From NCBI GenBank assembly GCA_963699165.1, contig OY969413.1, forward strand, positions 63,506-127,505: DNA of 64,000 nucleotides, read 5' to 3'. The notes beneath the pieces are model-generated. The model was given only the letters and a program-made list of their open reading frames with translations. It did not search any database and was not told where the DNA came from. The translations under genes were made by a program, and so were the position numbers. Positions within the stretch are counted from its first letter, which is position 1; every line of letters begins with the position of its first letter. Origin of the DNA: Candidatus Kaiserbacteria bacterium (lineage in GTDB: Bacteria > Patescibacteriota > Minisyncoccia > Phycocordibacterales > Phycocordibacteraceae). Positions 11,479-39,689 of the stretch are shown piece after piece.

Positions 11479-11568
11479 CGCTGTCCACAGTATGAGTTTG
11501 GGAGGAGCGGGAGTAAACTGATGTCAACGGAAAATTTTATTAGCGTTTGCCGATAACCGCCACGCCTC

Positions 11569-16952: not shown

Positions 16953-16974
16953 TAAATTAGGGTATTATAGGGCA

Positions 16975-20962: not shown

Positions 20963-21475
20963 TTGCAAGCATTATCGAAAATAGGCACACGTGCTGTAAG
21001 CCTGTTCGCATTCTTTAGAGGGAGAAACAAGGTGGATGAAATCCAAGAGCTCATTCAAATAGCGAATGACGGGAAAAATGAGGGGTACTACGCGCCTGCT
21101 AATATTGTTTTCGTAGTGTTGCTGTTACGATATCTAGCAAATGAAGCAGGACTAGTTTTGAAAGTGGAAACCAACGATCCGGAAGGAGCAAATCCGAGCG
21201 AAGCATATTACGACCTGCTGGTTTTGTGCTACGGAGAGCACGAGATCTGCATTCCGGTGACGCTCATCGAGCGTACCTTGCTTTTTACAGCCATGAAAAC
21301 AAAACCGCAGTGTGTTGCCCGGAGGAATCATAGACGTCAGGTCAGCGTAGGAGAACCCGCAAGGGAAATTTGTCGTCAAGAGAGGATCTGTGAACTTCTC
21401 GGTGAAAATCTCATACGATACGCTGTGGATCGCATCGAATCGCCCATGAAATCGGTACGTTCTCACGGGTATTAA
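20963..21475 (+). CDS. hypothetical protein whose 3' end lies inside the IS1595 terminal repeat (probably disrupted)
   Basis: 170-aa ORF with no recognisable domain. Its last codons are encoded by the IS inverted repeat. Confidence 0.3.
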   Translation: MQALSKIGTRAVSLFAFFRGRNKVDEIQELIQIANDGKNEGYYAPANIVFVVLLLRYLANEAGLVLKVETNDPEGANPSEAYYDLLVLCYGEHEICIPVTLIERTLLFTAMKTKPQCVARRNHRRQVSVGEPAREICRQERICELLGENLIRYAVDRIESPMKSVRSHGY

Positions 21476-22320
21476 GAACGAGTTGGCACAAGCGTTAATG
21501 ATTTTAATAAGTAAGTGCGCGGATTTCCGAACAATTCCGGTGAGGAAAATCTGAAGCAGAATTCCCTCACGTATTGCTCGAGGTTCTCGCTCCAGTGATG
21601 ATGATACATCCTCCGCACAAAGGTGCGGTATACGCCGAACACGCCTTCGATTTCGGAGGTATGTTCGAACTCGAATTTTGAATGAATGTCTCTGCTGTGG
21701 GAGACCGGCCATCGCTTGCCGACACCCCGGTATATCGAACCGCCATCGGTCCACAACTCGCTCCCCGGCTTCACTTTGGCAAAGAGAAAGTCCATCACGT
21801 CCGTCTTGTTCGGGAAGCGATTGTGCATGACGGTATAGGCAAGCTTTCTCGTTCCTTTCTGCTTGGCCATCACGAGAGCTGCGTTCTTGAAATATGCCTC
21901 GTCCATCTGCACGATACGCTCGAGAATATGCTCTTCTTGGGGCAAATGCTCACGAAAGGTGGCATACCAGCGGCGTATCGTTCGTTCAGGCAAATGCGTG
22001 AGCTCCATGGCCTGCAAGACGGGTTCTCGTATCGTCCAGCACCAGAGGAGCATCCACCACGTCTGGAGCGGAAGCTTGAGGTTTGAGAGCCAGGTATGCG
22101 AGAGGAGCGAGAACCTTCGGCGGCAGGCAACACACCGGTACCGGTCTTCGTACCGCACAATCCTGCGCGAGCGGCAGAGCGGGCAAAACACATTCTTTCC
22201 GAACAACGTTCGCCGCAAAAACTTTCTAATCTGCACTTCAGACGGAATTTGTTTGAGCGTGTACATAGCTTCCATGATACGGGAGCTGTGCCAACAGAGT
22301 CTGAATACCCGTTCTCACGC
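21456..22320 (-). mobile_element. IS1595-family insertion sequence (~0.87 kb)
   Basis: It has a single transposase ORF. Imperfect terminal inverted repeats CGTTCTCACGGGTATTAAGAACGAGTTGGCACA are found at ~21458 and TGTGCCAAC..AATACCCGTTCTCACG at ~22319. Confidence 0.7.
21472..22275 (-). CDS. IS1595-family transposase (N-terminal Zn-ribbon + DDE domain)
   Basis: It has an N-terminal CPLC..CVAC zinc ribbon and the QMDEAYF DDE core typical of ISXO2/IS1595 transposases. Confidence 0.8.
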   Translation of the reverse strand: MEAMYTLKQIPSEVQIRKFLRRTLFGKNVFCPLCRSRRIVRYEDRYRCVACRRRFSLLSHTWLSNLKLPLQTWWMLLWCWTIREPVLQAMELTHLPERTIRRWYATFREHLPQEEHILERIVQMDEAYFKNAALVMAKQKGTRKLAYTVMHNRFPNKTDVMDFLFAKVKPGSELWTDGGSIYRGVGKRWPVSHSRDIHSKFEFEHTSEIEGVFGVYRTFVRRMYHHHWSENLEQYVREFCFRFSSPELFGNPRTYLLKSLTLVPTRS

Positions 22321-23534: not shown

Positions 23535-23912
23535 ATGCATGACCTGACGCCCTATAAAGACAAACCGTCTGACGAGTGGCTTTCTGTTACAGAGAAGTTG
23601 ATTAAGGAACATCCATTAGGACCTGAAGCGATGGTCGCAGTAGTAAAGAAATCATGGGATCAGATTTTCACGAGCAAAATCGGTGGAGTTATCCAGATAG
23701 GAGAAGAGATCGCCCTTACCCCTCAAATGATTGGTAATTTTCTGCATGTATTAGTTGCACATAATCTTTCAGAGAGCTCGCCGGAACTATGGCGGATAGA
23801 GGCTGCCGCTGGGGAAAAAGATGTTGTGTACGTGCCGGACGACTACTACTCATTGTACCGACCCCTATTCTTCAGACCACTTCCTAGACGAGTGAAGATA
23901 GTGTACGGGTGA
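23535..23912 (+). pseudogene. hypothetical protein, C-terminally truncated by IS-A copy 1
   Basis: The ORF is real-looking up to ~23853. Its last ~19 codons (..RPLFFRPLPRRVKIVYG) are encoded by the IS-A terminal repeat, and the same tail appears wherever IS-A abuts an ORF. Confidence 0.4.
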
Positions 23913-24696
23913 TGTGCGATTTCGCAAACTCTCTCGGTGCCATCTTGAGTGTTGAGTGTATACGCACGGTGTTGTACCGGTGAATTGTCTGATAGATTTC
24001 AGCAACAAGTTCACCAAGCGTATCGAAGCGATTGGGATCGCCCAGATCAGTTTTGAATTTTCCATAGAACGATTCTTGGTACCCGTTCTCCCACGGACAG
24101 CCCTTTTTTGAGCGAGAGATGCTGATGCCGAAATTGATGAGCATCTCTCGGAAGGATGCGGCATTGTATTCCACTCCGTTGTCGCTGTGAAAGATGGTGG
24201 GACGAGGATGGTTGAGAAGTGCCGCGCACAATGCCTGCGTCACAAGTACGGTTCCACCTCGCGTACCAATGGCGAGCCCAACGACACTTCGAGTGTATAC
24301 GTCCATGGTGGTTGCCACACGAATGTCTTTCCCTTTGAAATACACATGAGTGAAATCAGCGACCCATGCTTGATGCGGATAGGCGGGTACAATCCGCATC
24401 AGGAGATTTGGATACTCCACGGCTTGTTTCCTTGATTTCCTCCACCGTCTTCCTCTTCTTCGATATGCTTTGATACCAAAGAGTCGCATGACTCTTTGAA
24501 CCTTCTTTTTGTTCTCCTTGAGATACAGGGCAACTCTCCGGTATCCATACGAAGGAAACTCTCGAAGGACTTCTTCAATACGGCATTTGAGTGCCCAGTC
24601 TTTGTCAGGCTTCTTCTTTTGATACCAGAAGGTGGAACGAGCTATACCAAGAGTACGCGCTGTTGTGCGCGTACCAATCGGAGATTCTTTGCTCAC
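23884..24696 (-). CDS. IS3-family transposase OrfB (DDE integrase core)
   Basis: 270-aa rve domain (..WVADFTHVY..HSDNGVEY..CPWENGYQESFYGKFK..). Confidence 0.85.
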   Translation of the reverse strand: MSKESPIGTRTTARTLGIARSTFWYQKKKPDKDWALKCRIEEVLREFPSYGYRRVALYLKENKKKVQRVMRLFGIKAYRRRGRRWRKSRKQAVEYPNLLMRIVPAYPHQAWVADFTHVYFKGKDIRVATTMDVYTRSVVGLAIGTRGGTVLVTQALCAALLNHPRPTIFHSDNGVEYNAASFREMLINFGISISRSKKGCPWENGYQESFYGKFKTDLGDPNRFDTLGELVAEIYQTIHRYNTVRIHSTLKMAPREFAKSHITRTLSSLV

Positions 24697-24950
24697 TTCT
24701 TTTTTTGGGTTTCAGACAGCTTGAGCGTCATGAGTCCAACAAGACGAAGGAGTTCGTCATTCTCTTTTCGAAGTCTCGCAATCTCAAGAACAGATGCGGT
24801 ACCGTCTTGCACTTTCGCACCAAGCCAGCCATAGATGGTGGTCTCGTGGATACCATGCTCTTTGGCCGCTTGGGCGACAGTGACACCATCGTTCTTGATT
24901 CGATTAATGATTTGTTCCTTCACCTCAGGAGCGATGCGGTATTGCTTCAT
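24693..24950 (-). CDS. IS3-family transposase OrfA (HTH)
   Basis: 85 aa: MKQYRIAPEVKEQIINRIKNDGVTVAQAAKEHGIHETTIYGWL.. with a leucine-zipper tail. Confidence 0.85.
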   Translation of the reverse strand: MKQYRIAPEVKEQIINRIKNDGVTVAQAAKEHGIHETTIYGWLGAKVQDGTASVLEIARLRKENDELLRLVGLMTLKLSETQKKK

Positions 24951-25029
24951 ATGACGTCATTCTAGCGGTTAATCCCGTCTAGAACATGGTCTGAAATTTG
25001 GGGGTCAGGTCAATTGTCATCCATAAGTT

Positions 25030-25587
25030 CTATCTCTGCTTATATTTTCCCACAATCCGCTTTTTAATATCCTCGAGTTCTCGTTCGTTGAAAAGTTTAT
25101 CGTACTTCCATATTTTTCCTCCTGTGTCGAAAGCGCCGATGTATTGTTCACAATAAATTCTCGGATTAATGGCATACGCAGCGCCGCGTCGTTCCCAACC
25201 CGATGTCATGCCGTAGTCGTAGATGATATCGTGACCCAACGATCCTATCCATTGATGCGCGAGAATATTTCGCCAGTCGTGGATTATTTCGGCGATCTTG
25301 GAGAATTTTGTATCCTCAGAGTCACCATCGACATATGTCTCCAAGAACCATTTATATCCATCGAGTCCATTTTGGTCGACAAACACCTCCGCAATTGTCA
25401 GGGCGACGGCATGAATGCCGAGAAAAAGAAGTGTCGTTTGAGCCTGTCCGACCGTGAGCTCGATTTCATTATTGAAAAAATTGTCGATGGAATTCAGTAA
25501 TGTCTCGATAGCTTCAATCGGATGACCGTTTTGAAGACGTTGCAATCGATGTTCTTTTGACTCCGATTCGTGGGCGTTATTTCTCAT
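25030..25587 (-). CDS. hypothetical protein downstream of the serine recombinase
   Basis: 185-aa ORF with protein-like composition and no recognisable domain. Confidence 0.45.
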   Translation of the reverse strand: MRNNAHESESKEHRLQRLQNGHPIEAIETLLNSIDNFFNNEIELTVGQAQTTLLFLGIHAVALTIAEVFVDQNGLDGYKWFLETYVDGDSEDTKFSKIAEIIHDWRNILAHQWIGSLGHDIIYDYGMTSGWERRGAAYAINPRIYCEQYIGAFDTGGKIWKYDKLFNERELEDIKKRIVGKYKQR

Positions 25588-25633
25588 ATCTCTGGAGTAT
25601 AGAGCAAATTTCTGGTAAGGAAATTCCCAGATG

Positions 25634-26983
25634 CTAGATATTGCTCAGATCAACGTTTCCCATTATTACTTCTCGGTCTTTTAGTATCAACTGACTTTTA
25701 AGGCATGACAGTAGTTCTCGCTTTTCCGTAATCGTACCGTCCTTAAGTAAATATTTTGCATAGGTACGTATGTCGATATCGGGTGCACGATCTTTTTTCT
25801 TCGCACCGAGCACGCCCATTCGGAATTTGTTATATCGCACGATCTCTTCTTCTATTTTTTCTCGCATACCAATCTCATCCAGGTCGAGTGTGTCAAGCAG
25901 TTTCGATAGTTCTTCGATTAGTGCAGTCTCGTTAATGGCCGGATTCGTGCAGTCGGTTTTTGTACTTCGCGTACACATATAGTACACATGGCGATTCGCG
26001 CCTCCATTCTTCAGTTTCTTGAATTTCTCATCGGCAGTGATGCCGCTTCCGCAGTATCCGCATTTAATGAGTTTCGTAAATGCGAACTCCTTGCTCTCGG
26101 TCTTGGGGATATAGCGATCAGTGACCGCTTCATGTACTTTGTCGAATAATTCCTTCGTAATGAGTGGCTCATGTTTACCTTGATACCAATTGCCGCTCTC
26201 GACCGGGTATTCAAATTCGCCGTAGTAGAAGGAGTTGTGAAGAAGGAGAAAGATATTCCCTAAGGAAAGTGTTTTGCCGGTTCGTGTCTTGAATCCCATT
26301 TTCTTGAGCCACCGAAATACATCTCTACCACTCCATCCATCGTTACCAACTTTCTCGAATATCTGACGCACTACAATTGCGCGTTTCGGATCAGGTCGTA
26401 CTTGGCACTTCTTGTCGACATTCTTTTCTGGAAGATATCCGGTTGGTGCAACGCTCGGCCGCCATCCCGTTTCGCAACGTGCTCGCAGTCCGCGCTTCAC
26501 ATTGATTATTTTTTGATCGTTCTCGAGCTTCGCCTGCGAGCCGAGAATCATGAGCATGAATTTCTCGTTCGGATTGTTTGTGAATGTCTGACTATAGGTG
26601 CGGATCTCAACGAGCTTCTTTTGGTCAAACAGATCCACGACGGCGCCAAGGTCTCCGGCGTTACGACTTAACCGATCCGGTGCCCACGTCAGAATGCCGT
26701 TGAATTTGCCACATCGAATATCATCGAGAAGTTGGTTGTATATCGGCCTTTGGCCGACTTCCTTAGAGGAGTGCGATTCGCGCTTGATCTCAACGATCTC
26801 GAGACTTTCGCGCGAAGCGATGTCCGTCATTTCTTTCACTTGTGATTCGATGGAAAGAATTTGCCGATCTTCTTCCAAAGTACTTTTTCTTGCATAAAGG
26901 CAGTATTTAACCTTGATGGGTTCCGGTTTGACGGCCTGCCTCATAATGCCGCTAAAGGGTGCCCGAATTGCTGTTTGTGTCAT
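25634..26983 (-). CDS. large serine recombinase (integrase of the tRNA-Phe element)
   Basis: An N-terminal resolvase catalytic domain (YARKST..S..Q..) is followed by a recombinase domain, a Cys-rich zinc ribbon (CGYCGSGI..YYMCTRS) and a C-terminal coiled-coil. It reads toward tRNA-Phe. Confidence 0.85.
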   Translation of the reverse strand: MTQTAIRAPFSGIMRQAVKPEPIKVKYCLYARKSTLEEDRQILSIESQVKEMTDIASRESLEIVEIKRESHSSKEVGQRPIYNQLLDDIRCGKFNGILTWAPDRLSRNAGDLGAVVDLFDQKKLVEIRTYSQTFTNNPNEKFMLMILGSQAKLENDQKIINVKRGLRARCETGWRPSVAPTGYLPEKNVDKKCQVRPDPKRAIVVRQIFEKVGNDGWSGRDVFRWLKKMGFKTRTGKTLSLGNIFLLLHNSFYYGEFEYPVESGNWYQGKHEPLITKELFDKVHEAVTDRYIPKTESKEFAFTKLIKCGYCGSGITADEKFKKLKNGGANRHVYYMCTRSTKTDCTNPAINETALIEELSKLLDTLDLDEIGMREKIEEEIVRYNKFRMGVLGAKKKDRAPDIDIRTYAKYLLKDGTITEKRELLSCLKSQLILKDREVIMGNVDLSNI

Positions 26984-27135
26984 ACAGACACAAGGAATGA
27001 CGCTGACCGCTCTAGGAGTCCAGAGCGTCCGATGCCCTGAGTTGATAAGAAACGGCTTTATTTCAGGTCATTTTTGTGCTAAAATCACAAAATCCACTCA
27101 CTCTGTGGTCACTTTAAATTGGAGAAAAATAGCTA

Positions 27136-28586
27136 TGTTTGAAAATTCATTCAAAAATATAGACCAAATACTTCATACAGATTCTGGTTCAGCCACTGAA
27201 CTGGACTATGTCGAGCAGACATCGTGGATTCTCTTTTTGAAATACCTTGACGATTTGGACGAGGCAAAGAAAACGGAATCGGCCTTAGCAGGCAAAAAAT
27301 ACAGCTATATTCTTGATCCGCAGTATCGTTGGAACACTTGGGCTGCTCCAAAAACCGCTGATGGGAAAATAGATCATAACAAGACGCTCGACGGTGATGA
27401 TTTAAATGATTTCGTGAATCAAAAGCTATTTCCGTATTTGAAAAAATTTAAAGCCGAGGAACCGAATACTATTGAATATAAGATTGGTGAGATTTTTAGC
27501 GAGCTTAAGAATAAGATTTCTAGCGGCTATAAGTTGCGTGAGATTTTGAATATTGTTGATCGGATGCACTTCCGTCTATATGAAGAGAAGCATGAGCTGT
27601 CGCACCTCTACGAGGCAAAAATTAAAAATATGGGAAATGCCGGTAGAAATGGTGGCGAATACTACACACCGCGACCTCTTATTAAAACCATTGTAAAAGT
27701 AGTCGCGCCGACCATCGGCGAGACAATCTATGACGGTGCCTGTGGCTCGGCAGGATTCTTGGTGGAGTCGTTTAATTTTCTTACGCAGAATCAAGCCAAG
27801 CTGTCATCGGCGCAGATGGCGACACTTCAGAACAAGACGTTTTATGGAAAAGAAATAAAATCCCTTGCCTACATTATCGGCATCATGAATATGATCCTGC
27901 ACGGTATTGAAGCGCCGAACATCAGGCATATGAACACGCTCGCGCAGAACATTAACGACATTCAAGAAAAAGACCGCTACGATATTGTTCTAGCCAACCC
28001 TCCTTTTGGTGCGGGTATTGGGCGAGAGATTCAGCAAAACTTCCCCATAAAGACTGGCGAGACGGCATTTCTATTTCTTCAACACTTCATAAAAATACTC
28101 AAAGCTGGTGGTCGCGCGGGAATTGTTATTAAAAATACATTCCTATCCAACACCGACAATGCTTCTGTCAGTCTCCGCAAACTCCTTCTGGAGAACTGCA
28201 ACCTACATACCGTACTCGATCTGCCGGGAGGTGTTTTCGCCGGGGCAGGAGTGAAGACGGTCGTGCTCTTCTTTGAGAAAGGAAAGCCGACGAAGAAGGT
28301 GTGGTTCTATCAGCTGAATCTAAAGCGCAACCTCGGCAAGACCAATCCCCTTAATGAAGCAGACTTGGCAGAGTTTGTGGCGCTACAGAAGACGAAGGCG
28401 GATAGCGAGAATTCATGGAGCGTTGATATCTCAAGTGTTGATCAAAACACCTTTGACCTGTCAGTGAAGAATCCAAACAAAGGTGATGGGGTAGCTCTTC
28501 GTAGCCCTAAAGAGATTTTGAAACAAATGAAGGATTTAGATAAGGAAAGTGAAAAAATAGTGGCATCTCTAGAAAAACAACTATGA
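27136..28586 (+). CDS. HsdM-like N6-adenine DNA methyltransferase (type I RM M-subunit family) with no HsdS/HsdR partner
   Basis: It has an HsdM_N-like N-terminus, an NPPFG catalytic motif and a SAM-binding GACGSAGFL. An RBS GGAGAAAAA precedes the ATG at 27136. Its stop overlaps the start of the SIR2 gene (cTATGA). Confidence 0.8.
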
Positions 28587-29012
28587 AAGAACTAAAAGAT
28601 ATTAAAAAAACAATAGATAGCGCAAACATTAATTTCTTAATTGGATCAGGGTTGTCTAGTCCTTTTCTAGAAATTCTCAACCAAATTGAAACCAAGCTAA
28701 CGAAAGCAGAAAACGAAAAGAACGATGTTGAAGTTTTAAGATTAATGAAGGAATACTTTGAGAAATCGATGCTTGGAAACCTAAAAATCGTTGCTGAAAT
28801 TACTGATAAGGTTAAAGATGGAGTTCTAAAAAATTATGAAGATTTTTATAAGAAAATTAATCACATAGTTTTAAAGAGGGAGAGTTCCATTCTAACAAAA
28901 CAAATTAATGTCTTTACCACAAACGTAGATATTTTCTCTGAAAAGGCGCTAGAAAATACAGGGATTGGAAGGTACCCCTTTCTTCGTACACTCATTCTAT
29001 AAGTATAGGATA

Positions 29013-29795
29013 CTATGCTCTGCTCAGAGCAACAAACTCTCTTGGCGCCATACGCAGTGCTGAGTGAATGCGAGCGGTATTGTGATAGTGGATGGTGAGG
29101 TAGATCTCAGCCACTAATTCACCTAACGTGTCGAATCGGTTCGGATCACCCAGGTCAATCTTGAACCCTTTGTAGAAGGACTCTTGGTAGCCATTCTCCC
29201 AGGGACATCCAGGACGAGACATAGATTGCTGTATGCCGATCGTTGCCACGAGCATCGCATAATCCTTTGAGGCATACTCGCTGCCTTGATCCGAATGGAT
29301 GACACGAGGTGGCGATTTGTGATGCAATGCAGAGAGAAGTGCATTCATGATGAGTTGCGTGCTGTGGGTGGTGAGGACTGACACACCGACAATCTCTCGG
29401 GAATAGACGTCAAGGATGGTAGCGACGTATACCCAGTACCCGTGGTACTTGAGGTAGGTGAAGTCACTCGCCCAGATGTCACCGTCCTGCTCGGGAGTTT
29501 GATGGAGCAAGAAGTTCGGGAATATACTGTCTTTTGTCTTTAGCACAAATCGCTTCTTTGCGGTCCTCCGATATGGTTTGATACCGAACAATTTCATCAC
29601 ACGCAGAATGCGCTTTTTGTTGACTTTGAGGTAGAGTGCCAACCGTTTGTGCCCATAGGCGGGATGGCTATGCAGAGCTTCTTCGATGAGTTGCTTTGTG
29701 TGCCAATCCCTCCGAGCCTGCTTCGGCTCGTAGTACAGCGTACTGCGAGCAATACCGCTCTCGCGTGCAAGAGCACTCTTGTTTTCTCTCATCAA
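29013..29795 (-). CDS. IS3-family transposase OrfB (IS-B)
   Basis: 260-aa rve integrase core (..HSDQGSEYAS..CPWENGYQESFYKGFK..). Confidence 0.85.
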   Translation of the reverse strand: MMRENKSALARESGIARSTLYYEPKQARRDWHTKQLIEEALHSHPAYGHKRLALYLKVNKKRILRVMKLFGIKPYRRTAKKRFVLKTKDSIFPNFLLHQTPEQDGDIWASDFTYLKYHGYWVYVATILDVYSREIVGVSVLTTHSTQLIMNALLSALHHKSPPRVIHSDQGSEYASKDYAMLVATIGIQQSMSRPGCPWENGYQESFYKGFKIDLGDPNRFDTLGELVAEIYLTIHYHNTARIHSALRMAPREFVALSRA

Positions 29796-30052
29796 GAGCC
29801 CCTTTTTTCTCCGTTTGAGAGTTTAAACGTCAATTCTCCGATGAGTGCTTTAAGGAGACCGTTCTCCTTCTTCACTCTGTTGTGCTCAATGATACTCACT
29901 CCTTTTGCAGAGGTGCCAAGCCAAGCATAGATAGTGACGGTACTGACTCCGTGTTCTTTCGCTGCCTCAGCGACACTGATGCCATCGTTTTTGATACGGT
30001 TGATAATCTGCTCCTTAATCTCAGGAGCAATACGGTATGCTTTCTTTGCCAT
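29792..30052 (-). CDS. IS3-family transposase OrfA (IS-B)
   Basis: 86 aa: MAKKAYRIAPEIKEQIINRIKNDGISVAEAAKEHGVSTVTIYAWL.. Confidence 0.85.
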   Translation of the reverse strand: MAKKAYRIAPEIKEQIINRIKNDGISVAEAAKEHGVSTVTIYAWLGTSAKGVSIIEHNRVKKENGLLKALIGELTFKLSNGEKRGS

Positions 30053-31010
30053 AGGTACATTCTAAATTAGCTGCTGGTATTTAGAATGAGTGTCCGACGT
30101 TTGGGGTACCTTGCAGATCGATTTTAATGATGGTTTCAACGGAAGATTCAATCCTAAATATGATGTGGGAAATTTCAAGAAGTCTTATTTCAAGAAGAGT
30201 CTTCATTATGAGAACACGTCCGAAATACCTGTATTTAATATACTGAAGTTACACGGGTCTCTTTCTTGGAAAGAAACTGATAGAGAGATTTATTTGGATA
30301 GTGTCTTGGAACAAGTAAAAGAAGTCGAAAATAATAAAGTGTCTGAATTTTATGATTGTTTCAAAAAATTGATGGTCGTTAATCCAACTAAACAAAAGTT
30401 TGGAGACACATTATTAAATCAACGCTACTACGACTTGCTCAGAATTTTCTCTAACGAACTAGAGAAGGATAATACCGTACTATTCGCGATGGGCTTTTCA
30501 TTTATGGATGAGCACATTTACGACCTAACATTGAGAGTTGCAAATTCTAATCCTACTCTGAATATTTACATATTTAGTCACGGCTCCAAACCGAGTGATA
30601 CCTATCTAAAACTGGAAGCGGATGCTAAAAATAAAAATATAAAAATCCTTATTCCGGAAAGTGGAAAAGAGTACAGTCTAGAAACAATAACTTCAGACTG
30701 TTTTGATAAGATTATTCTCCCTGAAAAAGAGGTTGGCAAAGGGCTTATAGATACTTCATTGCCACAAAAAGATGACTGACGACCTTACCTTAATGGAGAA
30801 ATACATAATTGATAACTCAATTTTTAGAATTGGGAAGGTTATTGAAATATCAGGTCAATCTGTAAAAGTAAAAGTAGATACTGGGAAAAACACATCCTCA
30901 ATCTTGTATAAGGGGGAGATAATGCAAAATATTTCTGTACAAGGATATGTGAAAATAAAGAAGTGGAAGGTACCCCTTTCTTCGTACACTCATTCTATAA
31001 GTATAGGATA

Positions 31011-31793
31011 CTATGCTCTGCTCAGAGCAACAAACTCTCTTGGCGCCATACGCAGTGCTGAGTGAATGCGAGCGGTATTGTGATAGTGGATGGTGAGGTA
31101 GATCTCAGCCACTAATTCACCTAACGTGTCGAATCGGTTCGGATCACCCAGGTCAATCTTGAACCCTTTGTAGAAGGACTCTTGGTAGCCATTCTCCCAG
31201 GGACATCCAGGACGAGACATAGATTGCTGTATGCCGATCGTTGCCACGAGCATCGCATAATCCTTTGAGGCATACTCGCTGCCTTGATCCGAATGGATGA
31301 CACGAGGTGGCGATTTGTGATGTAGCGCAGAGAGAAGTGCATTCATGATGAGTTGCGTGCTGTGGGTGGTGAGGACTGACACACCGACAATCTCTCGGGA
31401 ATAGACGTCAAGGATGGTAGCGACGTATACCCAGTACCCGTGGTACTTGAGGTAGGTGAAGTCACTCGCCCAGATGTCACCGTCCTGCTCGGGAGTTTGA
31501 TGGAGCAAGAAGTTCGGGAATATACTGTCTTTTGTCTTTAGCACAAATCGCTTCTTTGCGGTCCTCCGATATGGTTTGATACCGAACAATTTCATCACAC
31601 GCAGAATGCGCTTTTTGTTGACTTTGAGGTAGAGTGCCAACCGTTTGTGCCCATAGGCGGGATGGCTATGCAGAGCTTCTTCGATGAGTTGCTTTGTGTG
31701 CCAATCCCTCCGAGCCTGCTTCGGCTCGTAGTACAGCGTACTGCGAGCAATACCGCTCTCGCGTGCAAGAGCACTCTTGTTTTCTCTCATCAA
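31011..31793 (-). CDS. IS3-family transposase OrfB (IS-B copy 2)
   Basis: Identical to 29013..29795. Confidence 0.85.
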   Translation of the reverse strand: MMRENKSALARESGIARSTLYYEPKQARRDWHTKQLIEEALHSHPAYGHKRLALYLKVNKKRILRVMKLFGIKPYRRTAKKRFVLKTKDSIFPNFLLHQTPEQDGDIWASDFTYLKYHGYWVYVATILDVYSREIVGVSVLTTHSTQLIMNALLSALHHKSPPRVIHSDQGSEYASKDYAMLVATIGIQQSMSRPGCPWENGYQESFYKGFKIDLGDPNRFDTLGELVAEIYLTIHYHNTARIHSALRMAPREFVALSRA

Positions 31794-32050
31794 GAGCCCC
31801 TTTTTTCTCCGTTTGAGAGTTTAAACGTCAATTCTCCGATGAGTGCTTTAAGGAGACCGTTCTCCTTCTTCACTCTGTTGTGCTCAATGATACTCACTCC
31901 TTTTGCAGAGGTGCCAAGCCAAGCATAGATAGTGACGGTACTGACTCCGTGTTCTTTCGCTGCCTCAGCGACACTGATGCCATCGTTTTTGATACGGTTG
32001 ATAATCTGCTCCTTAATCTCAGGAGCAATACGGTATGCTTTCTTTGCCAT
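31790..32050 (-). CDS. IS3-family transposase OrfA (IS-B copy 2)
   Basis: Identical to 29792..30052. Confidence 0.85.
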   Translation of the reverse strand: MAKKAYRIAPEIKEQIINRIKNDGISVAEAAKEHGVSTVTIYAWLGTSAKGVSIIEHNRVKKENGLLKALIGELTFKLSNGEKRGS

Positions 32051-33246
32051 AGGTACATTCTAAATTAGCTGCTGGTATTTAGAATGAGTGTCCGACGTTT
32101 GGGGTACCTTGCATAAAGAATTGCCATTAATAGACAATACTTGTTTTTTACTCACAAAAGAGGAGTTTAATAAAATCCATGAATTTGTTAATAAAGATGA
32201 CAAACCTATCGAAATAGGAAGATTGGAATACGACGATGGTCAAAAAATAGAACTAGGCATAAACAAATTATTTGCTAGCCATATAGGTATATTTGGTAAT
32301 ACTGGAAGCGGTAAATCATATACGCTCGCAAAAATCTATAGAGAATTATTCAAAATCTTTAAAGATAGTCCGAAATTTCAAAAAAATGCAAAGATCTTCC
32401 TGATTGATTTTAATGGCGAATATATTGGAGAACTGGAAGAGAGTACTGGTAAATACAAAAGTAGAGATGTAATCGTTGAAGAGAAATATAAGAATATATA
32501 CGAACTAACGACGAGAAAAAAGATTGAAGATATTACGGAAGAAGAAAAGTTTCCTATCCACGAATCAGCAATAAAAGATTCTACGTTTTGGTCAATTTTT
32601 CTCTCGGCAACTGAAAAGACCCAGATACCTTTTTTGGAGAGAGCTATTAGAGATACTTATATTGAAGAAAGATTGAAGAAAGAGAAATCTTTTAAAGACC
32701 TTCTTAGTGCCAAGATATTTGATGCAGTAACACAAATAGACAAAAAGACCGAGAAGAGTGTAATAACGGATTTGTTAAACGAATTATTTCATTATTTAGA
32801 TAAAAACGAATCTATAAAAGAAGCGGAGAAATACTTCAGAGAGAACTACGGTATTTTCCAAAAGGAGGGAAAATCAGTATTTAAGTTAAATAAAAATAAT
32901 GCAGATCACTACTCGGATAATGCTAATGACATAAAGACATTTCAGGATGATATAAATGAGCAGGTTGCAAAAATATCGGAAGTAAAAGTCGACGAACTGT
33001 CCACAATAAAGAGATTGGGGCTACAAATCATAATTAAATACTACGATGAAATGATTCGTGGATTTTCAAACAGAGAACATCTCTCTCCTTTGATCAAGCG
33101 ACTTGACCAAAGGATTTTGGATCTAGAGAAGGTCTTAGTAGTAGTGGAAAAAATCAGTAAATCTGAAAAGAACTTCACTGTTATTGACCTGACCCCCAAA
33201 TTTCAGACCATGTTCTAGACGGGATTAACCGCTAGAATGACGTCAT

Positions 33247-33504
33247 ATGAAGCAATACCGCATCGCTCCTGAGGTGAAGGAACAAATCATTAATCGAATC
33301 AAGAACGATGGTGTCACTGTCGCCCAAGCGGCCAAAGAGCATGGTATCCACGAGACCACCATCTATGGCTGGCTTGGTGCGAAAGTGCAAGACGGTACCG
33401 CATCTGTTCTTGAGATTGCGAGACTTCGAAAAGAGAATGACGAACTCCTTCGTCTTGTTGGACTCATGACGCTCAAGCTGTCTGAAACCCAAAAAAAGAA
33501 GTGA
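33247..33504 (+). CDS. IS3-family transposase OrfA (IS-A copy 2)
   Basis: Identical to 24693..24950. Confidence 0.85.
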   Translation: MKQYRIAPEVKEQIINRIKNDGVTVAQAAKEHGIHETTIYGWLGAKVQDGTASVLEIARLRKENDELLRLVGLMTLKLSETQKKK

Positions 33505-34313
33505 GCAAAGAATCTCCGATTGGTACGCGCACAACAGCGCGTACTCTTGGTATAGCTCGTTCCACCTTCTGGTATCAAAAGAAGAAGCCTGACAAAGACT
33601 GGGCACTCAAATGCCGTATTGAAGAAGTCCTTCGAGAGTTTCCTTCGTATGGATACCGGAGAGTTGCCCTGTATCTCAAGGAGAACAAAAAGAAGGTTCA
33701 AAGAGTCATGCGACTCTTTGGTATCAAAGCATATCGAAGAAGAGGAAGACGGTGGAGGAAATCAAGGAAACAAGCCGTGGAGTATCCAAATCTCCTGATG
33801 CGGATTGTACCCGCCTATCCGCATCAAGCATGGGTCGCTGATTTCACTCATGTGTATTTCAAAGGGAAAGACATTCGTGTGGCAACCACCATGGACGTAT
33901 ACACTCGAAGTGTCGTTGGGCTCGCCATTGGTACGCGAGGTGGAACCGTACTTGTGACGCAGGCATTGTGCGCGGCACTTCTCAACCATCCTCGTCCCAC
34001 CATCTTTCACAGCGACAACGGAGTGGAATACAATGCCGCATCCTTCCGAGAGATGCTCATCAATTTCGGCATCAGCATCTCTCGCTCAAAAAAGGGCTGT
34101 CCGTGGGAGAACGGGTACCAAGAATCGTTCTATGGAAAATTCAAAACTGATCTGGGCGATCCCAATCGCTTCGATACGCTTGGTGAACTTGTTGCTGAAA
34201 TCTATCAGACAATTCACCGGTACAACACCGTGCGTATACACTCAACACTCAAGATGGCACCGAGAGAGTTTGCGAAATCGCACATCACCCGTACACTATC
34301 TTCACTCGTCTAG
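33501..34313 (+). CDS. IS3-family transposase OrfB (IS-A copy 2)
   Basis: Identical to 23884..24696. Confidence 0.85.
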   Translation: MSKESPIGTRTTARTLGIARSTFWYQKKKPDKDWALKCRIEEVLREFPSYGYRRVALYLKENKKKVQRVMRLFGIKAYRRRGRRWRKSRKQAVEYPNLLMRIVPAYPHQAWVADFTHVYFKGKDIRVATTMDVYTRSVVGLAIGTRGGTVLVTQALCAALLNHPRPTIFHSDNGVEYNAASFREMLINFGISISRSKKGCPWENGYQESFYGKFKTDLGDPNRFDTLGELVAEIYQTIHRYNTVRIHSTLKMAPREFAKSHITRTLSSLV

Positions 34314-36083
34314 GAAGTGGTCTGAAGAATAGGGGTCGGTACACTTTGCCTCCTTCGCTCTTATAAGAAGATTCTGTGCGGGATTGTATCCACCTCTCGT
34401 TGTTTCCTGCTTTACGATAAGTTCTTGGTCGGCATCCTTCTCGTTTAACGGATATGGCGGCGGAGGCGTATATGAACCTTCTGGAATGCGAATCTTTCCC
34501 GCCAAACGATCGCGCATTTCCGAAAACGCAAACCATAGCGCCATCAGTGCATCGCCAGTGTGGCCATCGGGGAACGCTCGCATTTCATTTACGAGTTGCG
34601 CGACGAGTTGTCGCGTTCGCGCGTCACTCTGACTATAAGGAAGGATGATCTTCCTCTGTTCAAAGAGAACCGCTAAACTATTCACGCCGATCGCTGGGTC
34701 ATTCTTTTCTCCGCCGGTCTTGTAGCTGGTGACGAGTGCACCGGAGTCGCCCAAGTCGCGATACATCATTTCCTGAAATCCGTTCGTCTCGACACGAGTT
34801 GCGGTCGGTCTCACGATCGCTTCATTGCGGATGACCATATCGCACGTTTCTTTCGGTGAGAACTTCCCGCGCCGTATGTTGCGAAGCACATAGTCGCCAA
34901 CTTTAAAAGTTCCGTCCGTTGAGCCGCGGAGAACACGGTCGAGAGTGAGAAGAACGGTGTCGTCATTCCAATTCTCGGTAGCGATAGCGAGATCGAGACC
35001 AGCGGTTGTCATTTCCACGTCATACTCGGTATACGGCGCGTCTTGCAAGATCAAGTCCTTGCCCTTAGCAAGTGCTGCTTCAATGTCCTTCTCAAGGAAC
35101 TTCTGATTCGGACGAATTGAAGGATCACACATATACATGCGTGCGAAGGCATATGGATTGGCGATGCGTTTCAGATAAAGATCTCCGTACGAGAAACGCT
35201 CCGGCCAGAGGACATCTATACCTTCCTCCATTTCCGCTTTATGCTCGGCACGATACTCGCTCGCTTTTGCTGTTTTTTCTTCAGGTGAAAGCGATTCATC
35301 GAGATGGATATTTGCCCATTCCTGCCACATATCCTGACGATTCGCTTCGTGCAGTATCGATGGTACGCGTTTTCTCACTTGAAATTGCGGGTCCTTGAGA
35401 AGATTGTTCATCAAGTCGTCCATGTGCCATGTGTTGCCAAGACAGATGAGACGACCGTCCGTCATTAAGACCGGCAGAAGCGTCGTGTATACCCAATCCT
35501 TGATCTTCGCACGCTGCTCCTCGGTCGCGGCGTTTTCCTGCGTCACCACATCATCAAGAATGATGATATCGGCACGCTTGGAAACGATTGACCCGAAGAG
35601 ACCGACGGCATTTACAGTCGGATCTTTTAGATTCAGTCCTTCGCGCTCGACCGTGAAAGAACTTCCGGTCCAATGTTCCTCACGTTTCTTTCCGTGACGC
35701 AGGCGCGGGGCGACACTGCGACGCTTCGGGTCGATCATCTTCGACCAAAGTCGATATTTCGGATTGCGCTCGATGTGCCCAATGATATCTGAAACGAATC
35801 CACGCGCGATTTCGCCAGTGCTCGATACGAGAAGAATGCGAATCTCGCGATTTTTGGCGATCTCCCAGAGAGGGTATGCGATGGAGCTATGGGTTGATTT
35901 ACCAAAACCGCGCGGCATCGCGATGGCGAGTTTTTGATAGGTATAGTTGGAGAGAGCATCGTCAAGTTCGTCCTGAAACGGCGCATTGTTTAGACCAATA
36001 ATTTCGGACACGAAGACGCGAAAATGCTCGGCCGCTATCGCGCAAAAGACGGCCGCTTCTTCAAGTTTTGGAATGTTACCCAT
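34302..36083 (-). CDS. terL: phage terminase large subunit (ATPase + nuclease); last ~14 codons supplied by IS-A copy 2 (C-terminally truncated)
   Basis: It has Walker A AMPRGFGKST and Walker B IIILDDV, followed by a C-terminal RNaseH-like nuclease domain. The start is taken at MGNIPKLEEAAVF; the longest ORF begins at 36122. Confidence 0.75.
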   Translation of the reverse strand: MGNIPKLEEAAVFCAIAAEHFRVFVSEIIGLNNAPFQDELDDALSNYTYQKLAIAMPRGFGKSTHSSIAYPLWEIAKNREIRILLVSSTGEIARGFVSDIIGHIERNPKYRLWSKMIDPKRRSVAPRLRHGKKREEHWTGSSFTVEREGLNLKDPTVNAVGLFGSIVSKRADIIILDDVVTQENAATEEQRAKIKDWVYTTLLPVLMTDGRLICLGNTWHMDDLMNNLLKDPQFQVRKRVPSILHEANRQDMWQEWANIHLDESLSPEEKTAKASEYRAEHKAEMEEGIDVLWPERFSYGDLYLKRIANPYAFARMYMCDPSIRPNQKFLEKDIEAALAKGKDLILQDAPYTEYDVEMTTAGLDLAIATENWNDDTVLLTLDRVLRGSTDGTFKVGDYVLRNIRRGKFSPKETCDMVIRNEAIVRPTATRVETNGFQEMMYRDLGDSGALVTSYKTGGEKNDPAIGVNSLAVLFEQRKIILPYSQSDARTRQLVAQLVNEMRAFPDGHTGDALMALWFAFSEMRDRLAGKIRIPEGSYTPPPPYPLNEKDADQELIVKQETTRGGYNPAQNLLIRAKEAKCTDPYSSDHFLDE

Positions 36084-36495
36084 GGTCGTTTGTTTTAGGG
36101 TGATTAAGATACGGTTCGACAAGCCGCTTGGTTTCGGGTTTCAGTGTTCCGAACACTTCGAAGAAGATATTTTCATCTTCATCACGAGCGATGGCGAAGG
36201 CGGACTCGAAGGCGCGCTGACGATAATCGGGATGCTTATTTTTCAACCAGAATATCGTTGCCGTGAGATTGCCGTTTTTGATGCCGGAGAGTATCTGACT
36301 CTCGGCGGCATCGTTCATGAGCGCCGTGCCTTCGGCGAGCGCGTCATCAACGAACTTCGCGAATTCCGAATCTTCTTTCTTCCACCTGTACAGGCTCGCG
36401 CGACTCATGCCGGTTTTCTGACATGCGACTTCAATGATCGGCGTTTTGCGTAATTGTTCAAGCAACAATTCTTTGGTACGAATAGTCTTTTTCAT
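36076..36495 (-). CDS. phage terminase small subunit-like HTH DNA-binding protein
   Basis: 139 aa with an N-terminal HTH (..KTGMSRASLYRWKKEDSEF..) immediately upstream of terL. Confidence 0.5.
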   Translation of the reverse strand: MKKTIRTKELLLEQLRKTPIIEVACQKTGMSRASLYRWKKEDSEFAKFVDDALAEGTALMNDAAESQILSGIKNGNLTATIFWLKNKHPDYRQRAFESAFAIARDEDENIFFEVFGTLKPETKRLVEPYLNHPKTNDHG

Positions 36496-37274
36496 ATTTG
36501 TTTTGCTTTAAGGTTGGTACAGTGCTCCCAGCGAGAAATCGCTGTGAGGCAATATTCGAGATCAATTTCGACCGCGAAGCATCGACGCTTCGTTTGCTCG
36601 CACGCTAACAGCGTGGTACCGCTGCCAAGAAATCCGTCGTATACCACATCGCCGATTTCGCTTGAGTTGAGAATCAAACGACGAATAAGTCCGATGGGTT
36701 TGGTTGTCGGATGAAATTTGCTTTTGACAGGACGCGGATAGAACAAAACCGACTTATCTTTTGAGTGACGGAATATATGCGTGCCATGCCAGCCGTAAAG
36801 GATCAATTCATGTTGGGGTGCGTAATCGAGGCGACCGATAACCGCTTGCGATTTCACCCACACAAGAAGCTGCGCGACCTTGAATCCAGCGTCTAACATT
36901 CCTTCGCGAAGCGACCACACCATTTTGTCTGCATTGAACACATACGCGGCGTTTTTTCGGGCGAGATAAGGAGCGATTGTTTCAAGCCATGCGCGGTTGA
37001 ACGCCCGATATGATTCATCGGATTGTAGTTCGTCGTTCGCAACAATTTTATCTTTTGAGAGTTTTGAGAATCCGCGTTTAGATTCCACTGCCGAGACGGC
37101 ATACGGTACGTCACAACATACGAGATTTATATGGATATTACCTATAAGCCTCTCCAGCAGTTTTTTGTCACGTGCGTCGCCGTATGCGATGCGGTGATCG
37201 CCAAGTTGCCAGATAGTGCCAGGCTTAATTGAGTTTGCGGGCTTTGATTCCAGTTGCGTTTTCATACCGTTCAA
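36492..37274 (-). CDS. DNA methyltransferase (N6_N4_Mtase family, phage-type)
   Basis: It has a DVPY (DPPY-like) motif and the C-terminal SAM-binding motif VVYDGFLGSGTTLLACEQTKRRCFAVEID. Confidence 0.8.
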   Translation of the reverse strand: MNGMKTQLESKPANSIKPGTIWQLGDHRIAYGDARDKKLLERLIGNIHINLVCCDVPYAVSAVESKRGFSKLSKDKIVANDELQSDESYRAFNRAWLETIAPYLARKNAAYVFNADKMVWSLREGMLDAGFKVAQLLVWVKSQAVIGRLDYAPQHELILYGWHGTHIFRHSKDKSVLFYPRPVKSKFHPTTKPIGLIRRLILNSSEIGDVVYDGFLGSGTTLLACEQTKRRCFAVEIDLEYCLTAISRWEHCTNLKAKQI

Positions 37275-38508
37275 TAATTACGTCCACGAATATCGGCTCT
37301 GCTTCGACCATGTAGCAGATTCGTTTCATCTGATCGGCGGCCATGAGCGTACTACCCGAGCCACCAAAGAGATCCAGCACCGCATCACCCGGCTTCGTAC
37401 AACGCTTGAGTGGCCGTTCGTGCAAGGTCACTGGCTTTTGCGTCGGATGACAATATTCTTGACTGGCGACGCGTTTCGCTAACCAAATATCCGCTTGATC
37501 CATGATGTCGTCGAGCAGTTTATTGCCTGACGGTCCAAGTTCTTTGTTCAGAACTTCTGCGAAGTTCTGCCCGACGGGTGCGATGTACGGCTTATTGCGC
37601 GTCGCATAGACGCAGGGCTCGTAACACTTTCCGAAGGCTACGCCAGGTACAGGGTTGGCGGGTCCCTTAATCCACAAACAAACTCGGCGATTTACGAGAC
37701 CAGCATCGGCAGAAAGTGACTGCACCATACCAATATATTTTTGGTCGCAGAAAAAGAATATGTGACAATCAGGGTCGCATACAACAAGCGCGTTCTCCAT
37801 CGAGCGTTTCAAGAAAGAACGATATTCTTCGTCTGGTTTCGAGTCGTCTACATTTCCGCCATACGAACCTTTGCCGCCAACGCCACGATCGTAATCAAGC
37901 GAGATGTTATAGGGCGGATCACAATAAATCATTCCGATTTTTGCCCCACAGGTAACTTTCTTTACAGTTTCGATATCGAGCGAACTTCCGCAGGCAAGAC
38001 GGTGCGACCCGAGCGCGTATAGATCGCCAGTTTTCGCCTTCGGTTCCTTCACGCGCTTTACCGCCTCGTCAAAATCAAATTCATCATCCGAAGTTTCAAG
38101 CGCGTCCGCAAAGATAATCGACAGATCCGAATCATCGAAGCCCGATGCGAGCATCGTATCGATATCGAAGTATTGGGAAATGAGACCATAATCCCAATCG
38201 CCATGAATACGATTACTTGAAAGCAGGTAACGATCGTACTCCGCCTTTGTGAGCTTTCTCGAAGGAACGCGTACTGGAATTTCTTCATCGATACGACCCA
38301 TGGCGGCTAACGCGGCGATACGCTGATGACCTGCAACTAGAGAGTTATCAAGGTCTATAACAGGAGCTTCAACAATTCCGAATTCTTTCAAGCTCTTTTT
38401 GAGGTCTGTCATCTGTTTCGGACTCATAATCCTTGGATTGTGTGGATTCTGAACGAGGTCGGAAACTTTTCTCGTCTCCGTCGTCCACGTGAGCGGCTGC
38501 TTTTTCAT
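37225..38508 (-). CDS. ParB-like nuclease domain fused to DNA methyltransferase
   Basis: It has an N-terminal ParB/Srx domain (..IVEAPVIDLDNSLVAGHQRIAA..) and a C-terminal MTase (..MIYCDPPYNISLDYD.., ..VLDLFGGSGSTLMAA..). The start is chosen at MKKQPLTW; the longest ORF begins at 38613. Confidence 0.75.
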   Translation of the reverse strand: MKKQPLTWTTETRKVSDLVQNPHNPRIMSPKQMTDLKKSLKEFGIVEAPVIDLDNSLVAGHQRIAALAAMGRIDEEIPVRVPSRKLTKAEYDRYLLSSNRIHGDWDYGLISQYFDIDTMLASGFDDSDLSIIFADALETSDDEFDFDEAVKRVKEPKAKTGDLYALGSHRLACGSSLDIETVKKVTCGAKIGMIYCDPPYNISLDYDRGVGGKGSYGGNVDDSKPDEEYRSFLKRSMENALVVCDPDCHIFFFCDQKYIGMVQSLSADAGLVNRRVCLWIKGPANPVPGVAFGKCYEPCVYATRNKPYIAPVGQNFAEVLNKELGPSGNKLLDDIMDQADIWLAKRVASQEYCHPTQKPVTLHERPLKRCTKPGDAVLDLFGGSGSTLMAADQMKRICYMVEAEPIFVDVIIERYENATGIKARKLN

Positions 38509-38627
38509 ATCGGTATATTTGCTGTTAAAAGGCGCATCGCGCGCCCTACAGCAGATACCCACGACTTTCGGCATTTTTGTGACATATAAAAAGCCGCATG
38601 GAAGCGGCTTCAACGGGGAATCCTATT

Positions 38628-39689
38628 TTAGGACAGTAATGGCTTCAGTTTCGGGAGAGCGCGGCTTTTCGCCTTTCGTTCGGTAGCAGTGAGAATTTCA
38701 CCGCGATAATCTTTTTCTATGGCCAGTCGCTCTTTTGGAGGGAGCTTTGTGATCGCACGAGCGATATCGATTTCTTGGATATTGATGGTATCAGTATGCC
38801 TTGCGAGTACCGCATCTGCTCGGGTTTCATCATTGAGAATTTTATCCAACGATTCTTCCAAAAAATTATCTTTGATTTCGTACTTGCCGCGCCCGAGGTT
38901 GTAATCTTTATGGCGGAGACGAAGCCTCTCCGGAAGTTCCGATAGATACAAAGGTTTTCGACGCGGCTTAGCAAGCAGTTTCTGCGTCTCATCTACTGCA
39001 AACGTGAGATTGCCAAGGGAAGTTGAGGCATAGAGATACTGGTAGGTCGATTTGAAACCGCTCCATGCGCGCGTAAGACGCCGCATTAAATCTGCACGAT
39101 GAGGCCCACACGGATCCTTTTCCTTTACACGAGCGAGGAGAGCTCCAACCTCAACAATTTCTGCCCGCCTTATTTCGAGCTCTTTAATGGTTTTGCACCA
39201 GCCGCGAATCATTTCTTTTGTAACGGATGGATACTTTCCCCGGATTTCATTCCATGCTTCTGGAGTGAATTGGTCTTCCCATGACCAAAGAATCTCCGAT
39301 TGATGATCTGGAGAGAACGGCGGTTCGGATTCTTCAGAGATTTGCAATAATGGATTATGTAAAGTTTTGCTCTCTTCGTCCAAATATCCTTCGTATAAAA
39401 TTTCGGTTAGGGAATGCAGAGATGCTAAAACTTCGGGCGATTCTTCACAATCTTTGGCCGCAAAAAGGAAGTACTGTAGGCAAATCAATTGCAATTGAAG
39501 GTCGTTGAGGAAGAAAAGATCTGGGTGTTGAGCCCGCTTCAGTGCGAATTCTTTCATAACAAGACCCAGATCTGCCCATACATCTTCTGCCGTGCGTGAG
39601 GGCAGACGCAAACGCAGTTGGAAGTTATGAATGGCTTGATCGAACTTCGTTCGTTCGTGATTGATAACGGTGCTGTGCGGAGTGGTCAT
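38628..39689 (-). CDS. hypothetical protein (phage-like cargo)
   Basis: 353-aa ORF with protein-like composition and no recognisable domain. Confidence 0.5.
   Translation of the reverse strand: MTTPHSTVINHERTKFDQAIHNFQLRLRLPSRTAEDVWADLGLVMKEFALKRAQHPDLFFLNDLQLQLICLQYFLFAAKDCEESPEVLASLHSLTEILYEGYLDEESKTLHNPLLQISEESEPPFSPDHQSEILWSWEDQFTPEAWNEIRGKYPSVTKEMIRGWCKTIKELEIRRAEIVEVGALLARVKEKDPCGPHRADLMRRLTRAWSGFKSTYQYLYASTSLGNLTFAVDETQKLLAKPRRKPLYLSELPERLRLRHKDYNLGRGKYEIKDNFLEESLDKILNDETRADAVLARHTDTINIQEIDIARAITKLPPKERLAIEKDYRGEILTATERKAKSRALPKLKPLLS

Follow-up and report, generated by a model that had tools for sequence, protein, structure and literature searches.

A probable remnant of a type I restriction-modification operon with an embedded SIR2-HerA pair, broken by insertion sequences, in a Candidatus Kaiserbacteria genome

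Type I restriction-modification (R-M), BREX and DISARM loci often contain embedded genes, many of which are known defence systems (Payne et al., bioRxiv 10.1101/2024.01.29.577857); TgvAB in Vibrio VPI-2 (PMC11411939) and PrrC in EcoprrI (PMC12707154) are examples. SIR2-HerA has been described as a two-gene abortive-infection system whose products assemble into a large complex that has NADase, ATPase and DNA-directed activities (PMC11472057), and one of its subtypes is triggered by phage single-stranded DNA-binding protein (SSB) and by end-exposed DNA (PMC13434337); in both accounts the two genes are an autonomous system. In the literature we searched, SIR2-HerA was not named as cargo of a type I operon, and the classification paper (PMC13434337) contains no discussion of its R-M context. 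Here we describe a locus in a 64,000-nucleotide stretch of a Candidatus Kaiserbacteria genome (assembly GCA_963699165.1, contig OY969413.1, positions 63,506 to 127,505, forward strand; hereafter the window), in which a type I methyltransferase gene, hsdM, is followed by broken sir2 and herA genes. Comparison with intact relatives indicates that this locus is very probably the remnant of a type I R-M operon, hsdM-sir2-herA-hsdS-hsdR, in which a SIR2-HerA pair was embedded and which was destroyed by insertion sequences (ISs).

The architecture of the orthologous loci was observed directly. The SIR2 protein P0002, 78% identical to that of the window, is encoded at locus L001 in the order hsdM(483)-sir2(344)-herA(649)-hsdS(375)-hsdR(788), where the figures are lengths in amino acids and all genes overlap or nearly do so. 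A second SIR2 protein, P0001 (81% identical), stands in the same hsdM-sir2-herA-hsdS-hsdR order in three independent metagenomes (L085, L086 and L087); hsdS and hsdR follow herA directly in L001, L085 and L086, and the contig of L087 ends within herA. Over these four loci, identity to the window proteins is 84-88% for HsdM, 78-81% for SIR2 and 81-92% for HerA. The pair is flanked on both sides, and on the same strand, by genes of one R-M system in L001 and L085/L086; of these flanks the window keeps only hsdM. Because the intact orthologues carry hsdS-hsdR after herA, we regard the lone methyltransferase gene of the window as the gene that once headed a type I R-M operon and has survived its decay.

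The layout of the window around this gene, established from a listing of open reading frames (ORFs), a search for repeats and a BLAST self-comparison of the window, is given here in window positions; the gene identities and breakpoints are direct observations.

23535-23853, plus strand: 5′ part of a gene for a ScaI-like type II restriction endonuclease, context outside the operon (Pfam RE_ScaI, 3.2e-28)
23854-25012, plus strand: IS-A copy 1, IS3-family, 1159 bp (NCBIfam transpos_IS3, 2e-63)
25030-25587, minus strand: gene for a 185-amino-acid hypothetical protein of a low-GC island, no family match
25634-26983, minus strand: large serine recombinase (Pfam Resolvase, Recombinase and Zn_ribbon_recom; PHROG integrase, 4e-66)
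27135-28586, plus strand: hsdM, intact, 483 amino acids (Pfam N6_Mtase and HsdM_N; PADLOC MTase_I)
28583-28965, plus strand: 5′ part of sir2, from codon 1 through the second base of codon 128 (tblastn, reconstruction)
28966-30115, minus strand: IS-B1, IS3-family, 1150 bp (NCBIfam transpos_IS3, 3.9e-61)
30116-30779, plus strand: sir2 3′ fragment, including the duplicated GAT, with the KLHGS motif (Pfam SIR2_2, 8.2e-7; tblastn)
30772-30963, plus strand: 5′ part of herA, codons 1-64, encoding the first half of the HAS barrel (tblastn against L001 HerA)
30964-32113, minus strand: IS-B2, IS3-family, no target duplication, a 158-nucleotide herA deletion alongside
32114-33184, plus strand: herA middle fragment, codons 118-473, Walker A present (Pfam DUF87/HerA central domain, 6.5e-19; PADLOC HerA, 3.3e-65)
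33185-34343, minus strand: IS-A copy 2, no target duplication, joining the cut herA to a cut terminase gene
34344-36122, minus strand: gene for a phage terminase large subunit, the C-terminal end of which runs into IS-A, part of a prophage remnant (PHROG 38, 1e-72)

A first-pass annotation of the window had recognized an HsdM-type methyltransferase, a SIR2_2-type gene and a HerA-like ATPase, and Pfam and PADLOC profile searches bear out all three identities. The translation of hsdM, which carries the NPPF motif in IVLANPPFG, has the domain content of a type I M subunit (N6_Mtase, PF02384, 4.4e-66; HsdM_N, PF12161, 3.8e-9) and aligns with PADLOC MTase_I from end to end (model positions 2-489 of 491, 1.1e-159). 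Its intactness, also claimed at that stage, holds, and hsdM is the only intact gene of the set; its start lies at 27135 rather than at 27136. The reported overlap between the end of the gene and the start of sir2 is likewise real: the TGA stop (28584-86) overlaps the sir2 ATG (28583) as ctATGAaa, at 28583-28586. The window HsdM is a generic type I M subunit. A homologue search returned at least 8000 homologues, hundreds of them at 84-91% identity and many named as type I M subunits, and the protein is 87% identical to the M subunit of a plain hsdM-hsdS-hsdR operon.

The sir2 gene (28583-28965 plus 30119-30779) is interrupted by IS-B1 between the segments that encode its TTNVD and KLHGS motifs. 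Removing IS-B1 and one GAT in silico yields an ORF of 347 codons, the product of which aligns over 93-98% of its length with intact homologues of 340-350 amino acids, at up to 81% identity, and matches PADLOC SIR2 over residues 6-311 (3.6e-66). The residues that mark a SIR2_2-type NADase are present, N114, D116, H173, G174 and S175 being invariant in an alignment of 33 sequences. The two fragments, taken separately, match consecutive parts of the L001 protein in tblastn, the 5′ fragment residues 1-128 (80% identity) and the 3′ fragment residues 128-328. The damage to herA (30772-30963 plus 32114-33184) goes further. Its 5′ fragment is 92% identical to residues 1-64 of L001 HerA, and relative to the intact 649-amino-acid homologue 158 nucleotides (codons 65-117) are deleted beside IS-B2. 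Reconstruction of herA by simple excision of IS-B2 was tried and rejected: a frameshift remains, and comparison with L001 reveals the deletion. Of the two split pairs, sir2 reassembles into a single protein and herA does not simply do so. The 3′ truncation of herA by IS-A, by contrast, was correctly called. Codon 473 of about 649 is the last one before the boundary of IS-A (33185-34343), and the final 176 codons (474-649) are lost; the gene keeps the Walker A motif, GNTGSGKS, and lacks Walker B (residue 510) with the whole C-terminal third. Intact orthologous HerA proteins of 649-650 amino acids have the HAS barrel, Walker A and Walker B, a set that the window gene does not retain. Apart from these breaks, the split sir2 and herA ORFs carry no other lesions. 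With SIR2 split and HerA deprived of half of its HAS barrel and of the Walker B region, no SIR2-HerA activity is to be expected, and we take this copy to be non-functional on the strength of its lesions.

Both kinds of IS encode rve and HTH_Tnp_1 domains and end in 34-nucleotide imperfect terminal repeats, as is characteristic of the IS3 family. IS-A is 1159 bp long with termini TGTACC...GGTCA, and copy 1 is 100% identical to the three other copies in the window; IS-B1, 1150 bp, has termini TGGAAGG...CCTTGCA and is bounded by a 3-bp GAT duplication at 28963-65 and 30116-18. The first-pass annotation had described two identical IS3-family IS-B copies, one with a clean target duplication. The family and the GAT duplication are confirmed; the copies are 99.74% identical, differing at three positions (29325, 29327 and 29328), all synonymous. 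These three substitutions fall within 4 nucleotides (29325-29328 against 31323-31326; GCA TTG to GCG CTA on the coding strand), and the cluster could have arisen by gene conversion with a third copy as donor. Target duplications were found for IS-B1 (GAT) and for the IS-A copy at 56757 (ATG), and none for IS-B2 or for IS-A copies 1, 2 and 4, which is consistent with later recombination or deletion at those sites.

IS-A copies 1 and 2 are products of recombination between ISs, not simple insertions, since they lack target duplications and the genes truncated on their outer flanks, the ScaI-like endonuclease gene and the phage terminase large-subunit gene, are unrelated. A single inversion between the two copies, or a composite transposon, was considered and rejected; undoing the inversion restores no gene, and the flanking triplets (cat, att, aag, ata, act and gcc) do not pair into matching target duplications in any arrangement. 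The IS junctions are real and no assembly artefact, because an independent short-read contig (L088), which ends about 30 nucleotides inside IS-A and inside IS-B1, equals window positions 24985-28995 with 0 mismatches. Given IS copies that are 99.7-100% identical and split ORFs without other lesions, the IS-driven decay of the locus is recent.

Neither hsdS nor hsdR occurs anywhere in the 64-kb window, as judged by tblastn and by hidden Markov models (HMMs) built from the fetched loci. To that extent the initial remark that no HsdS or HsdR lies nearby stands; what it missed is that cognate hsdS-hsdR genes follow herA in the intact relatives and are deleted here at IS-A. Both genes are present in the orthologous loci L001, L085, L086, L089, L090 and L093, and their absence from the window is for this reason a secondary loss. 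HsdS is required for both methylation and restriction by type I systems (PMC11411939). As no specificity subunit remains, the surviving HsdM probably cannot bind or methylate DNA and would be inert.

A different reading of the same genes had been offered at the outset: that hsdM, sir2 and herA form a dedicated three-gene defence system, in which an orphan HsdM marks or senses self and non-self for SIR2-HerA. The 4-nucleotide ATGA overlap of hsdM and sir2, the lack of hsdS and hsdR in the window, and the frequency with which SIR2-HerA pairs directly follow methylase genes all speak for it. Each of these observations takes on another meaning once relatives are considered. Every close intact relative that extends past herA has hsdS-hsdR immediately after it; in the window herA is cut at the IS-A boundary, so the original 3′ end of the operon is gone; HsdM is full-length and canonical; and 46 of 81 SIR2-HerA loci surveyed have no R-M gene within 5 kb. 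A survey of intact homologous loci, which the first-pass annotation had proposed, did recover the order methyltransferase-SIR2-HerA, and found it continuing into hsdS-hsdR. That annotation had itself allowed that the methyltransferase might prove to be a generic HsdM with cognate S and R genes elsewhere in the same element, and in spirit this is what the relatives hold. These comparisons do not support the idea that an orphan M subunit within the operon serves as a new module for sensing or modification; we consider the three-gene system largely refuted and extremely improbable.

The gene overlap itself is shared with operons that carry quite different cargo. Locus L093 is a plain hsdM-hsdS-hsdR operon with no cargo. 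In L089 and L090, hsdM is followed by a gene for a 99-amino-acid protein, a gene for a protein with an SduA_C domain (the Shedu nuclease domain) and two small genes, a four-gene cargo (L089 6177-8908; L090 5817-8548) that leads into hsdS-hsdR. On the P0128 contig hsdM is followed by an AAA_21 ATPase gene and further genes, and in L091 and L092 by still other genes. The HsdM proteins of the cargo-bearing relatives (L089, L090 and the P0128 contig) are 88-89% identical to that of the window, and because HsdR is 80-85% identical between L001, L089 and L093, which differ in cargo, we group these operons into a single R-M family whose slot downstream of hsdM takes varying cargo. Wherever cargo is present, the gene next to hsdM starts in the same tATGA overlap with the hsdM stop, and translational coupling is therefore not specific to sir2. 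A by-product of this work is thus the recognition of a widespread type I R-M family, common in metagenomes of the candidate phyla radiation (CPR)/Patescibacteria, in which cargo is accommodated at the hsdM stop codon. The cassettes found there are of the SIR2-HerA, Shedu-domain or ATPase kind, in agreement with the published "guilt-by-embedding" picture.

The first-pass annotation had also suggested that selection silenced a costly or toxic effector and kept methylation, the IS insertions being favoured because SIR2-HerA (and HsdR) is costly or autotoxic, with hsdM retained under selection. The nuclease and effector genes nearby are indeed all broken or lost (sir2, herA, hsdR and the ScaI-like endonuclease gene), and three methylase genes are intact, namely hsdM and two PF01555 methyltransferase genes at 36492-38613. 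When R-M systems decay, R genes are commonly lost before M genes, a familiar route that such a pattern would follow. On the other side, HsdM has no known activity without HsdS, and the probability that three IS events miss hsdM by chance is 0.25-0.55. The genes that were hit are the most AT-rich targets, sir2 and herA having 32% GC and hsdM 43%. IS activity in the window looks indiscriminate, IS-A having also truncated the terminase gene and interrupted an IS-B copy, and the near-identity of the IS copies leaves too little time for the retention of hsdM to be meaningful. We think adaptive silencing very unlikely, and the claim was not upheld.

The remnant of a five-gene operon remains our preferred reading, and the following history would account for it. 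The ancestor would have been a type I R-M system with an HsdR of the EcoEI_R_C-type family. Its slot between hsdM and hsdS would have held an abortive-infection pair, SIR2-HerA (Gao19/Nezha), and the whole would have been carried on a low-GC island with a large serine recombinase in a Minisyncoccia (CPR) host genome of about 1 Mb. We infer that the genes were co-transcribed, one transcript supplying two layers of defence: restriction of unmethylated DNA by an M2S1R2 enzyme and, as a second layer, a SIR2-HerA complex that would be triggered by infection, deplete NAD+ and damage DNA. A recent burst of two IS3-family elements would then have destroyed the operon. IS-B1 would have split sir2 by simple transposition, leaving the GAT duplication; IS-B2 would have split herA, with removal of 158 nucleotides; and recombination of IS-A with IS-A would have removed hsdS, hsdR and the 3′ end of herA together with its Walker B motif. 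The remainder, a split SIR2, a damaged HerA and an HsdM without a specificity subunit, would be non-functional.

Three points weigh against this account. The direct search covered 64 kb of a genome of about 993 kb, and the 3′ end of herA with hsdS-hsdR, or a compatible hsdS, might lie elsewhere, in which case HsdM could still be active. The 3′ end of herA was not found elsewhere in the window by tblastn or HMM, and no C-terminal HerA fragment from the host's 993-kb contig was among the 120 best protein-database matches, a negative that presupposes that any such fragment was gene-called and ranked among those 120. Finally, the ancestral state is deduced from relatives 78-92% identical to the window proteins rather than read from an allele of the same population that lacks the insertions.

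SIR2-HerA loci more generally offer a view of how the pair is associated with R-M genes. Scanning a genome collection with a SIR2 alignment gave 79 loci, which together with other fetched contigs make 81 non-redundant SIR2-HerA loci; a metagenome scan with a single SIR2 protein gave only one locus (L084). The 81 loci were annotated with iteratively built HMMs and Pfam counts. An R-M gene of type I, type III or MmeI-like kind is directly adjacent and co-oriented in 25 of the 81, and lies within 5 kb in 35; the remaining 46 amount to 57%. These adjacency counts are lower bounds, the R-M HMMs having missed L027 (5974-14849), where a SIR2-HerA pair is preceded by a gene for a 1315-amino-acid single-chain protein with ResIII and Eco57I-methylase domains (type ISP-like) and followed by one for a KAP-family NTPase. 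R-M components lie within 5 kb on both sides of the pair in 8 loci, combining a type I M or S gene with R (L001, L085, L058 and L074), type III Mod with Res (L026 and L057) or MmeI-like genes (L031 and L036), and the type I examples overlap tightly with the pair. R-M-like ORFs make up 21% of the bases within 1 kb of the pair and 6-7% at 5-10 kb. In a Sediminibacterium metagenome-assembled genome (L009, 9998-17797), two tandem sir2-herA pairs (9998-12910 and 14888-17797) lie downstream of an HsdR-like helicase gene. About a third of the SIR2-HerA pairs in this clade, then, directly adjoin R-M genes of several types, which likewise agrees with the guilt-by-embedding view.

These counts raise the question of whether the two systems were functionally coupled in the intact five-gene ancestor, a proposal that is compatible with the remnant reading. 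SIR2-HerA might depend on the R-M enzyme or guard it, either by a PrrC-like release when restriction is inhibited or by being fed with DNA ends that restriction makes. In addition to the frequent adjacency, the flanking by three kinds of R-M system and the rise in R-M coding density near the pair, there is a precedent in PrrC (PMC12707154), and a characterized Sir2-HerA subtype is stimulated by end-exposed DNA (PMC13434337). Mapped on a neighbour-joining tree of HerA, however, R-M adjacency requires 20 state changes against a mean of 20.1 for shuffled labels; this lack of phylogenetic signal indicates that adjacency is freely gained and lost, with no specialized subclade. Both the type of R-M partner and the order of the genes differ widely among loci, more than half of the loci have no R-M gene close by, characterized SIR2-HerA pairs defend alone (PMC11472057; PMC13434337), and the same slot between hsdM and hsdS holds unrelated cargos. 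We judge such coupling to be rather unlikely. A broader version, in which the SIR2-HerA of this clade is functionally tied to ATP-dependent restriction enzymes and entered type I, type III, ISP-like and MmeI-like operons on repeated, independent occasions, seems to us to have a similarly small chance of being right. Were it right, the trigger would be restriction products (DNA ends) or phage anti-restriction proteins that inhibit restriction, and the five-gene operon would be a two-layer "restrict, then abort" unit of which the window holds a dead copy. The data as they stand fit a SIR2-HerA pair that is autonomous and mobile as a cassette and that tends strongly to settle within or next to R-M operons.

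The surroundings of the operon remnant bear the marks of extensive traffic. GC content is 32-43% in the low-GC island and 52% in the window overall, which is consistent with recent horizontal acquisition of the island on an element with a serine recombinase; the large serine recombinase at 25634-26983 is probably the integrase of the island. The neighbouring 185-amino-acid protein has no match in Pfam, PADLOC, NCBIfam or PHROGs. The ScaI-like endonuclease gene cut by IS-A copy 1 (23535-23853) covers RE_ScaI profile positions 2-102 of 192 (PADLOC REase_II, 1.9e-29), and its 3′ half does not lie beside any other IS-A end in the window. Beyond IS-A copy 2, the region 34344-39689 has the appearance of a prophage remnant, with a terminase large subunit, a terminase small subunit-like helix-turn-helix protein, two phage-type DNA methyltransferases, one of them fused to a ParB-like domain, and a 353-amino-acid protein without matches. 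A reverse transcriptase of 413 amino acids is encoded at 51538-52779 on the minus strand (Pfam RVT_1, 2.6e-24; PADLOC generic RT, 5.5e-56), with weaker matches to DRT UG17 and to Cas1-associated reverse transcriptases. An IS nest occupies 55034-57945: an inverted IS-A (55034-56192) is followed by three overlapping IS-B right-end fragments (56193-56488, 56489-56663 and 56664-56765), and a further IS-A (56757-57915) is inserted, with the ATG duplication, into the IS-B terminal repeat, the last 31 nucleotides of which lie at 57915-57945. Besides four copies of IS-A and three or more of IS-B, the 64 kb contain another large serine recombinase (565 amino acids, 61779-63476, minus strand) and an IS1595-family transposase (21472-22275, minus strand). 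This mobile load is high, a small curiosity for a CPR (Minisyncoccia) genome of about 1 Mb.

For annotation, the window locus is best treated as a dead defence island, that is, as pseudogenes and a probably inert hsdM rather than as a new methylase-coupled SIR2 system. The intact operons L001 and L085 provide material for asking whether embedded abortive-infection modules cooperate with restriction.

Set beside the systems with which we began, the pair resembles SIR2-HerA (Gao19/Nezha) in having adjoining genes, in overlapping frames, for a SIR2_2-domain protein and a HerA protein (HAS barrel plus FtsK/HerA ATPase), in its conserved TTNxD, KLHGS and Walker A motifs and its full-length PADLOC matches to both components, and in distant sequence matches to the solved complexes 8yhx and 8j4u. 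It differs in being distant from the characterized examples (phmmer E values of 1e-13 for SIR2 and 7e-33 for HerA) and in being embedded in a type I R-M operon instead of standing alone, and both of its genes are broken in the window. Orphan methylases that arise by R-M decay offer a second likeness, in that the window methylase gene has outlasted restriction and specificity functions lost through mobile-element activity; a type I M subunit is, however, inert without HsdS, and the window hsdM is probably a pseudogene-to-be that has not yet degraded. The closest likeness is to defence genes embedded in type I systems (EcoprrI-PrrC, TgvAB and the cassettes of Payne et al.), where cargo lies between subunit genes, tightly packed and on the same strand, and where related operons can have different cargos at one position. 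In the present case it is SIR2-HerA that is embedded. With no phylogenetic signal and most loci standing alone, the indirect evidence leans against a dependence on the host enzyme like that of PrrC. With its five genes the operon adds an example to a familiar class, that of defence systems lodged within type I R-M loci, and does not represent a new kind of system.

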